From positions 32,001 to 96,000 of the IMG/VR virus record IMGVR_UViG_3300037483_000443: a stretch of DNA of 64,000 nt. One strand, given 5' to 3'. The position numbers and the translations under genes are program-made. This DNA is from a virus. This document shows, one piece after another, positions 49,692 to 62,461 of the stretch (positions within the stretch are counted from its first letter, which is position 1; the number at the start of each line of letters is the position of its first letter). The notes under the pieces were generated by a model. It was not told the origin of the DNA and ran no database searches. It worked only from the letters and a program-made list of their open reading frames with translations.

Positions 49692-49768
49692 TGGTGCGAC
49701 TGGGGAGGATCGAACTCCCGTTGACGCGGATTTAGAGTCCGCCGCTAAAACCACTCAGCTACAATCGC
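49692..49768 (-). tRNA. tRNA with CUA anticodon (amber suppressor)
   Basis: GCGATTG/CAGTCGC acceptor, A73, CCA; anticodon arm GCGGA-CTCTAAA-TCCGC; T arm GGGAG-TTCGATC-CTCCC. Confidence 0.88.
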
Positions 49769-60010: not shown

Positions 60011-60049
60011 GGTTGGACGTTTAGATCTTAAGACCTTTTATAGCATCTC

Positions 60050-60685
60050 TTAACCGATTTTTTCACCGGTGACATGGTTTGTTACAATGTCATCTTGGCT
60101 ACGATATGTTTTAATCTTATCACCACGCATCCCAGCTCCTCGAAGATCTCTCTTTTCATCGTTCTTTCGTTTCTGCTCTTGATTAGAAAAATAACTTCTA
60201 ACTTTTGCTTCAAGAAGAGATCTAGCATTTTTCTTGTTGGTATGTTGACAACGCTCTCTAGCAATTGCTTCTATTCCAGTAGGAATGTGCCGCATGACAA
60301 CACATGAGTCTGTTGTATTAACATGTTGTCCACCCGGACCGCTAGATTTCTTGGTGAAGACCGTGATGTCACGATCGTTCAACTTCCACTCAGCTTCTTC
60401 TGGAACGATCATTGCTACTACCGTCACTGTTGAAGTGTGAACTCGTCCTTTACGTTCAGTGGGTGGGATTCGTTGCCACCGGTGACCGCCCGACTCTTGG
60501 AGCAATCCCCGGACGAGATTGTCTGGCCCATCGATCGTTAGATTGATTCAGCCGTGTTGCTCTTCAAAGTCAACTCGAGCGTTGATCCGCTCTGCAAATC
60601 GTGCGTAGATGGTAGCTTGGTCATTGACCAAGAGCTTTGCGTCTTCTCCGCCCTCACCTGGGCGGATCTCTAAACTGATCTTCAT
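60050..60685 (-). CDS. RF1-type peptide chain release factor lacking domain 1, with in-frame TGA at codon 46 (60548-60550)
   Basis: AGGAG SD, then MKISLEIRPGEGGEDA..EEQHG*INLTIDG..ESGGHRWQRIPPTERKGRVHTS..SSGPGGQHVNTTDS, all in one frame. Confidence 0.88.
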
Positions 60686-60737
60686 GTCTTTCTCCTAGTT
60701 GTGTTGTTTTCTTGAACTTCAAGTGAACATATCAACG

Positions 60738-62386: not shown

Positions 62387-62461
62387 TGGTCTCTCTACCC
62401 AGACTTGAACTGGGATCTAAAACTTAGGAGGTTCTTATGCTATCCATTGCACTATAGAGAG
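62387..62461 (-). tRNA. tRNA-Arg(CCU)
   Basis: CTCTCTA/TAGAGAG acceptor, A73, CCA; anticodon arm AGAAC-CTCCTAA-GTTTT; T arm CCCAG-TTCAAGT-CTGGG. Confidence 0.88.

Follow-up and report, generated by a model that had tools for sequence, protein, structure and literature searches.

The stretch of DNA analysed here, referred to as the window, comprises 64,000 nucleotides of a viral record from IMG/VR (IMGVR_UViG_3300037483_000443; hereafter G000), which has 135,654 bases, is estimated by CheckV to be 37% complete, and contributes its bases 32001-96000 to the window. Toward the end of the window, on the minus strand, lies a gene predicted to encode a short class-I release factor (RF) of the RF1 type, whose reading frame is interrupted at codon 46 by an in-frame TGA, called the gate below. 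The features of this gene, in window positions, are as follows.

60050..60685, minus strand: gene for the short RF1-type factor, 211 codons counting the TGA as read (ATG at 60685..60683, TAA at 60052..60050)
60691..60696, minus strand: AGGAGA resembling a Shine-Dalgarno (SD) sequence, 5 nt before the ATG, read from the sequence
60551..60685, minus strand: upstream segment, codons 1-45 (LEIRPGEGGEDA..., the start of domain 2), from the list of open reading frames (ORFs)
60548..60550, minus strand: TGA gate, codon 46, in the context GGC TGA A, read from the sequence
60458..60466, minus strand: PPT tripeptide (the PxT of RF1) inside GGHRWQRIPPTERKGRVHTS, read from the sequence
60326..60334, minus strand: GGQ catalytic motif (SSGPGGQHVNTTDS), residues 118-120, read from the sequence

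From the ATG, 45 sense codons (MKISLEIRPGEGGEDA...EEQHG), the last of them GGC, lead up to the TGA, and beyond it the frame continues unchanged through 165 further sense codons to the TAA. The table-11 ORF list cuts the gene into two ORFs, 60548..60685 (45 amino acids) and 60050..60505 (151 amino acids, with a TTG start). Both are in one frame, in agreement with the initial annotation, which had joined an SD-led ATG at 60685 to the listed gene beginning at 60505. Its description of an RF frame broken only once, by the TGA at codon 46, also held: among Pfam models, PCRF matched residues 3-89, across the stop, with 66.4 bits, and RF-1 matched residues 97-204 with 84.2 bits, both above their cut-offs. 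The PPT and GGQ motifs, likewise said to be intact, are both legible in the sequence. If termination happens at the gate, the 45-residue product stands alone. Contigs from two public sediment runs (word depth 13.9 and 41.2) were identical over 1001 bases and carry TGA at the gate; both runs may be source DNA and so are not independent, and the agreement, which was established on contigs, argues only against an assembly slip and leaves room for rare variants such as TGG at the gate or A7 at the A6 run described below. The runs listed for this DNA included no RNA run. Sequencing error was considered as a source of the TGA and rejected.

Sequence comparison and structural modelling indicate that the gene product is an RF1-type factor consisting of domains 2-4 and lacking domain 1. 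Among NCBIfam models, those for RF1 scored 184.5 and 181.4 bits (cut-offs 400 and 423.25), followed by RF2 with 111.4 and PrfH with 74.6, and all scores were below cut-off because only the part of the RF1 models after domain 1 was matched; indeed, the two RF1 models (NF001859 and TIGR00019) were matched only at positions 106-316 of 347 and 114-325 of 361, i.e., without domain 1. Scores against PDB sequences fell in the same order (RF1 137 bits, RF2 81, PrfH 45), which upholds the RF1-type identity originally assigned to the gene. When aligned to E. coli RF1 chains, the decoding residues were found to be conserved (hrwQripPTE..grvHTS vs. hrvQrvPATE..griHTS), and the decoding stretch GGHR[IW]QR[VI]PPTE..GRVHTS agrees with RF1. 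The same held across the family, where an RF1 reference outscored an RF2 reference for all 81 members and PPT was present in 77 of the 81, the Acinetobacter RF2 reference having SPF. An AlphaFold model in which the TGA was taken as Trp, with 16 full-length relatives as the alignment, had a mean predicted local distance difference test score (pLDDT) of 88.5 and a predicted template modelling score (pTM) of 0.72, and superposed better on ribosome-bound RF1 (TMq 0.85-0.88) than on RF2 (0.74-0.82) or PrfH (0.69). By the tripeptide rule, a PPT factor should read UAA and UAG, not UGA. Judged by this motif, UGA should thus be a non-cognate codon for the product of the gene that contains it. The libraries searched held no dedicated family for this protein, the best PHROG being phrog_19918, of unknown function.

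The genetic code of the phage was examined in whole genomes; ORF coverage in 3-kb flanks was too noisy as a code test and was replaced by whole-genome tests. The closest relative on a large contig, G001, has 345,069 bases with terminal repeats, is rated 100% complete, and encodes an RF that is 66% identical. Under table 11, stop-to-stop ORFs of at least 100 amino acids covered 0.91 of the window, 0.88 of G000 and 0.875 of G001. Among 97 non-overlapping ORFs of at least 150 amino acids in G000, 49 end in TAA, 37 in TGA and 11 in TAG; the corresponding numbers for 276 long ORFs of G001 were 145, 105 and 26. Nor was there an excess of TGA among stops that join pairs of ORFs in the same frame (TGA 20, all of them small, TAG 13, TAA 17). 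ARAGORN found no tRNA with a UCA anticodon among the 42 tRNAs of G000, the 52 of G001 or the 231 in the flanks of 80 RF loci. The initial annotation had excluded genome-wide recoding, and TGA does end 37 of 97 long ORFs in G000 and 105 of 276 in G001. Its central claim, that the full protein needs UGA readthrough, stands in that the UGA is real, selected and located in a genome that is not recoded.

A scan of viral contigs with the single protein as query gave no match, and blastn of the gene neighbourhood against isolated phages gave two short, irrelevant matches only. The tblastn comparison with phages, by which the initial annotation had proposed to follow up the gene, matched RF genes, but at identities of at most 42%. 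With an alignment as query, the scan of viral contigs returned 299 relatives; counts of viral loci refer to the 80 loci retained from these. At 76 of the 80 a recoding signal was present in the first ~50 codons, namely one TGA (64 loci), two TGAs (2), a TAG (2) or a +1 shift (8), the other 4 loci being uninterrupted. In all 8 frameshift loci the frame changes from 1 to 2 at CTT TGA, and in 7 of these a purine run like GGAGG or GGGGG precedes the site by a few bases, which together amounts to the prfB cassette. A protein search gave a similar picture of the position of the interruption: among the 120 matches listed, 16 cover 96-100% of the query (215-249 amino acids) while 103 cover 67-81% and start near the gate. 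The window's own public protein call, also among the 120 matches listed, is a 120-residue fragment.

The gate lies within domain 2 (codon 33-47). In a joint alignment, the first gate column accounts for 56 of the TGA gates and, among the frameshift sites, for the CTT of 7. Its residue is Trp in the RF1 reference (Acinetobacter) and Phe in that for RF2. The second gate column, which is that of the window, contains nine stops (TGA in the window and L002-L008, TAG in L010), with the eighth frameshift site (L009) adjoining it. Trp occupies this column in nine relatives without an interruption, among them the two closest to the window, P0002 (64% identical product) and P0004. Whether a stop is conserved at this column had been named as a check of the gene, and when run it gave this alternation of stop and Trp, which points to near-cognate reading by tRNA-Trp(CCA). 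In a quick maximum-likelihood tree, with SH-aLRT support only, the family stood apart from the RF1 and RF2 references (SH-aLRT 99), the 49 rows with TGA at the first column formed one deep clade (99), and the window grouped with L002 and L003 (TGA) and with P0002 and P0004 (Trp) (96). Since full length was the criterion for including uninterrupted protein rows, this tree does not give a representative share of them.

Purifying selection on both halves of the gene, another check proposed at the outset, was evident by the Nei-Gojobori method. Between the window and L002, the proportions of nonsynonymous and synonymous differences (pN/pS) were 0.18/0.80 upstream of the stop and 0.26/0.80 downstream, so that pN is far under pS on each side; between L002 and L003, dN/dS was 0.05 upstream and 0.07 downstream. 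The TGA was kept while synonymous sites became saturated, as the stop has outlived that divergence. The immediate context of the gate also appeared to be constrained. The preceding codon was GGN at 58 of 70 sites, and the following base was A at 37, G at 23, C at 10 and T at none of the 70. By comparison, T follows 38 of 142 true TGA stops of G000 and G001 (Fisher p = 5e-8, a value that is indicative only, because the sequences are related and significance is overstated). Together, these sequence comparisons indicate that the TGA marks neither a pseudogene nor an error, but is a recoding signal maintained by selection and specific to this one gene of a standard-code phage.

The family is not confined to viral records. 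A scan of bacterial genome records returned 145 relatives, of which 80 were kept, and the counts of genome loci refer to these. Two frames were seen in 55 of the 80 and an in-frame TGA in 8. In 70 of the 80, a CTT-stop pair stands in register for a +1 shift (stop TGA 49, TAG 19, TAA 2), compared with a chance expectation estimated at ~6 of 80; an SD-like run lies upstream of 50 of these 70 sites, and a C follows the stop in 58. Many of these relatives belong to Myxococcota, complete chromosomes included (e.g., among L103-L182, the Archangium gephyra chromosome, L144, the Minicystis rosea chromosome, L129, and Pyxidicoccus fallax, L141); they may be prophage or cellular genes.

UGA is recognised by RF2 only. 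The reading to which we incline, with slightly more confidence than doubt, is that programmed readthrough of the UGA gates an RF1-type factor whose output tracks low RF2 activity. The gene would make a working short class-I release factor. Most ribosomes would stop at codon 46 through host RF2 and release a peptide of 45 residues, while some would read the UGA, most likely by near-cognate tRNA-Trp(CCA), insert Trp and complete the factor. Lower RF2 activity at the UGA would give a higher yield of the factor; the yield would rise as RF2 falls because only RF2 reads UGA. In B. subtilis, readthrough of TGA is 6% in a prfB+ background and 19-54% in prfB mutants, according to figures cited in the available part of PMC7918605. 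Relatives would obtain the same dependence on RF2 by the prfB device, i.e., an SD, CUU UGA and a +1 shift, and both forms of bypass, readthrough and the CUU UGA shift, would become more frequent when RF2 is slow. The factor would then supply termination at UAA and UAG when host termination capacity is short. In this scheme the tRNA-Trp as reader, the yield following RF2 and the ribosomal role of the factor are parts that we infer, and RF2 sensing is suggested by two facts, that UGA is read by RF2 only and that a prfB cassette occurs at the same place in relatives.

A more tentative extension, which we think possible but would not yet favour, is a cross-wired homeostat, in which the virus gauges RF2 through UGA bypass and makes a factor of the other specificity to serve UAA and UAG, sparing RF2. 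TAA, which can be served by either factor, ends about half of the long ORFs of the phage. RF2 would become short through host shut-off or through ArfA-type rescue of broken mRNAs; such rescue recruits RF2, as indicated by the accessible portion of PMC8012679 and by the titles of PDB entries.

Several observations weigh against RF2-responsive readthrough as an account of the window and of the family. No convincing hairpin was found downstream of the stop in the window's clade (window z = 0.09; RNAalifold -4.18 kcal/mol, covariation 0.02), which argues against selenocysteine, but also against a structured readthrough stimulator in that clade. The gate is TAG in two viral loci (L010, L020), and in genome records the frameshift site is CTT TAG in 19 of 70 cases and CTT TAA in 2 of 70; since TAG and TAA are cognate for an RF1-type factor, these gates are a better fit to autoregulation. 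The family as a whole is not tied to RF2 and UGA alone; what it senses may be the general capacity for termination, with a gate codon suited to the host. In the window's clade, stop and TGG have toggled, with at least three changes forced by well-supported branches of the quick tree, which implies that the gate is dispensable in some lineages. Why an RF1-type factor should answer a shortage of RF2 is a rationale and not a result. Finally, outgroups are slightly more distant from the window's copy than from L002 and L003, and the conserved C-terminal tail of this copy is out of frame, a break that is absent from L002-L005 and that had been missed in the initial annotation:

60058..60063, minus strand: A6 run (GAA AAA A); past it, the conserved C-terminal tail is read in the -1 frame
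60021..60059, minus strand: -1-frame tail NRLRDAIKGLKI, ending at a stop and homologous to the in-frame tails of relatives

After the A6 run the 0 frame reads IG and then stops, while the tails of relatives are in frame (L002, ARLRDVKQGRIE...; L003, MRLRDVRQGKLE...). This copy may be impaired or decaying. The break may reflect a recent loss of one A, which would leave a protein lacking 12 residues, or else slippage within the A6 run would let part of the product reach full length. In the 20-sequence alignment A1, the window's copy retains each of the 43 invariant columns, among them GGQ and the decoding residues.

Other explanations of the gate differ in what the stop would accomplish. It might keep a factor that would do harm in excess at a low, constitutive level, with no sensing at all. 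Several close relatives have TGG in place of the gate, which would fit a role for dose alone, and recycling of a factor that lacks domain 1 may be poor. Overexpression of release factor lowers fitness in B. subtilis, according to the part of PMC12421855 that was available. A weak ribosome-binding site would suffice for such fixed attenuation, however, yet the gene has a good SD; gates also occur at no fewer than two columns and in two mechanistic forms, one of them the full prfB cassette with its known RF2-dependent efficiency, and the lack of T at the base after the gate suggests a leakiness that has been tuned. We consider fixed attenuation unlikely. Autoregulation, the simplest analogy to prfB, would have the short factor, perhaps of relaxed specificity, terminate at its own gate codon and shut off its own synthesis. 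It draws on the recurrence of an SD with a CTT-stop cassette in relatives, on the presence of TGA, TAG and TAA gates in one family, all of which a single omnipotent factor would account for, and on the middle residue of PxT, which is invariably Pro, unlike the PAT of the RF1 reference. Nevertheless, the specificity residues of RF1 are kept (Q before PxT, the P and T, and HTS) and neither the SPF nor the V of RF2 occurs, the gate is TGA at 74 of 76 recoded viral loci, 8 CTT TGA sites included, and by the tripeptide rule PPT would read UAA and UAG but not the UGA of the gate. Autoregulation thus appears rather unlikely to us.

The gate could also be opened by the phage itself, if a phage tRNA-Trp raised the reading of UGA once the tRNA arrays are expressed; the gate would then be a timer and not a sensor of RF2. 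RF genes do lie among tRNA arrays, with 231 tRNAs within 3 kb of the 80 loci, and in L007 a tRNA-Trp(CCA) begins ~10 nt past the end of the RF gene. The complete G001 has two tRNA-Trp(CCA) genes. The U11:A24 pair is the one created in the E. coli Hirsh UGA suppressor; it is present in 3 of 6 phage tRNA-Trp examined, a proportion for which there is no baseline from ordinary tRNA-Trp. The tRNA-Trp(CCA) genes near a gated RF, or in the same genome, are:

G001, 316655-316729: tRNA-Trp(CCA)
G001, 317874-317947: tRNA-Trp(CCA)
L007, 1511-1587: tRNA-Trp(CCA)
L008, 4981-5054: tRNA-Trp(CCA)
L075, 88-242: tRNA-Trp(CCA)

Against such a timer, a UCA-anticodon tRNA was nowhere found in G000, G001 or the 80 locus flanks, the +1 frameshift variants need no tRNA-Trp, a strong reader of UGA would lengthen the 38% of phage proteins terminated at TGA as well, and no tRNA-Trp occurs in the 135-kb source record, itself only 37% complete; we hold it to be quite improbable. 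It is more doubtful still that the window's copy is decaying, non-functional or misassembled, even if the gate of the family is real. The -1-frame tail after the A6 run, with a 0 frame that ends 12 residues early, a tree end branch of 0.51 (L002, 0.20; L003, 0.11) and a slightly lower identity to outgroups would all agree with decay. On the other side, the copy keeps every one of the 43 invariant columns, pN is far under pS in both halves, the same letters were assembled from two runs (depth 13.9 and 41.2, both possibly source DNA), and the TGA is common to L002-L008; moreover, since the tail remains open and homologous in the -1 frame, the change would be recent or compensated by slippage. 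Least credible, and in our view very remote, is normal decoding of the TGA as sense, whether as Trp under a code change across the genome or as selenocysteine. The gate does lie at a Trp column, and TGA-recoded phages with RF1 are described in the available part of a preprint (10.1101/2021.08.26.457843). A TGA=Trp code (table 4) was nonetheless rejected on the table-11 coverage of 0.88-0.91 and the use of TGA to end 38% of long ORFs in G000 and likewise in G001. Selenocysteine was rejected for the lack of any UCA-anticodon tRNA, whether suppressor or tRNA-Sec, in the genomes and flanks searched, for the lack of a hairpin after the UGA, and because the homologs have Trp, not Cys.

Programmed recoding within release-factor genes is a textbook example of translational autoregulation and, to our knowledge, has so far been known for bacterial prfB and giant-virus eRF1. 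Like prfB, the gene described here is a release-factor gene with an early in-frame UGA, the bypass of which would depend on RF2 activity, and the CTT TGA cassette of prfB, mostly with an SD-like run, recurs in 8 of 80 viral relatives and at 49 of 70 frameshift sites of genome records. The prfB frameshift site (SD, CUU UGA C) is at codon 26. It lies early, in the N-terminal part that is absent from the short factor, whereas the gate of the window lies in domain 2 and would be passed by 0-frame readthrough at a Trp column (GGC TGA A), with no +1 shift. In addition, the product is of the RF1 type, so that by motif UGA would not be its own codon, and the family also uses TAG and TAA. The class-I release-factor genes of Mimivirus and Megavirus are likewise viral termination factors expressed past internal stops by recoding, which the authors interpret as a regulatory device of bacterial style, as far as the accessible part of their article goes (Jeudy et al., 2012; PMC3521657). 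According to the same text, theirs are of the eukaryotic/archaeal eRF1 type, in amoebal viruses, and use frameshifting together with readthrough, while here a bacterial RF1-type gene of a phage would use a single UGA readthrough.

PrfH, of the RtcB2-PrfH ribosome repair pair, is also an RF homolog of ~200 residues that lacks domain 1 and keeps GGQ, and the initial annotation had likened the short factor to it in this respect. The absence of domain 1 was confirmed, but a wider likeness to PrfH was not: the PrfH model (TIGR03072) scored 74.6 bits against a cut-off of 166.65 and matched residues 97-197 only, the fold is nearer to RF1 (TMq to PrfH, 0.69), the stop-codon decoding residues of RF1 are fully conserved in the short phage factor, and RtcB (PF01139) was found in none of five phage records, G000 (partial) and G001, G002, G003 and G005 (92-100% complete). 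The Jade phages likewise carry an RF1 beside translation genes, as set out in the part of the preprint at hand (10.1101/2021.08.26.457843). There, their late genes read TGA as Trp, they carry a TGA suppressor tRNA and TrpRS, and this code-change module, RF gene included, is described as written in the standard code, with no stop reported within the RF gene in that part of the text, whereas in the phage studied here only the RF gene holds a TGA. We found no description of a stop-gated RF1-type phage gene in the literature searched, a search that did not extend to supplements such as Table S2 (phage release factors) of the Borges preprint.

The results suggest that a large family of phage RF1-type factors follows the logic of prfB, but places at the gate a codon that its own product presumably does not read, and they raise the question of whether phages monitor host termination capacity. 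If the cross-wired homeostat is true, this would be the first release-factor gene under the control of the other factor's codon, and it would form part of a phage kit for keeping ribosomes running, together with the tRNA arrays, tmRNA and CUA-anticodon tRNA of the same genome. Gene callers split or shorten these genes, so phage release factors are under-counted. The gate sequences would also be ready-made natural reporters of RF2 activity, if RF2-responsive reading holds.

RF-like places were found once each in G001-G004, and as two pieces of one frameshifted gene in G005, so that none of G001-G005 contained a second release factor. PHROG and Pfam searches of the neighbours of the RF gene gave no translation-related partner. 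A tRNA-Arg(CCT) lies 1.7 kb upstream (window 62387-62461, minus strand), and the genes between it and the RF gene match PHROGs of unknown function (phrog_20113) or nothing. Both G000 and G001 encode a permuted, two-piece transfer-messenger RNA (tmRNA) with the tag ANDANGALALAA (G000:C1 107431-107757; G001 306555-306937), which adjoins arrays of 40-50 tRNA genes, and ARAGORN called a tRNA-like gene with a four-base anticodon (ttgt) at G000:C1 118310-118386, with a similar call (ccta) in one locus flank. The window also contains a tRNA of amber-suppressor type:

49692..49768, minus strand: tRNA with anticodon CUA, CCA end encoded; counterpart at G001 202917-202992

This tRNA is a possible competitor of the RF1-type factor at UAG. 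It occurs in the standard-code G000, where TAG ends 11 of 97 long ORFs, and no TAG-interrupted gene was identified.

RNA ligase genes were a further recurrent neighbour. Neither G000 nor G001 contains an Rnl1-type RNA ligase gene, but in 15 of the 80 viral loci one lies ~1.5 kb or less downstream of the short RF (L017, L018, L025, L027, L030, L039, L042, L043, L052, L056, L057, L058, L065, L066 and L072). In Novimethylophilus (L155:720-2933), a kinase-phosphatase-RNA ligase fusion is located directly upstream of the short RF. These neighbours hint at a link to the repair of RNA damage.

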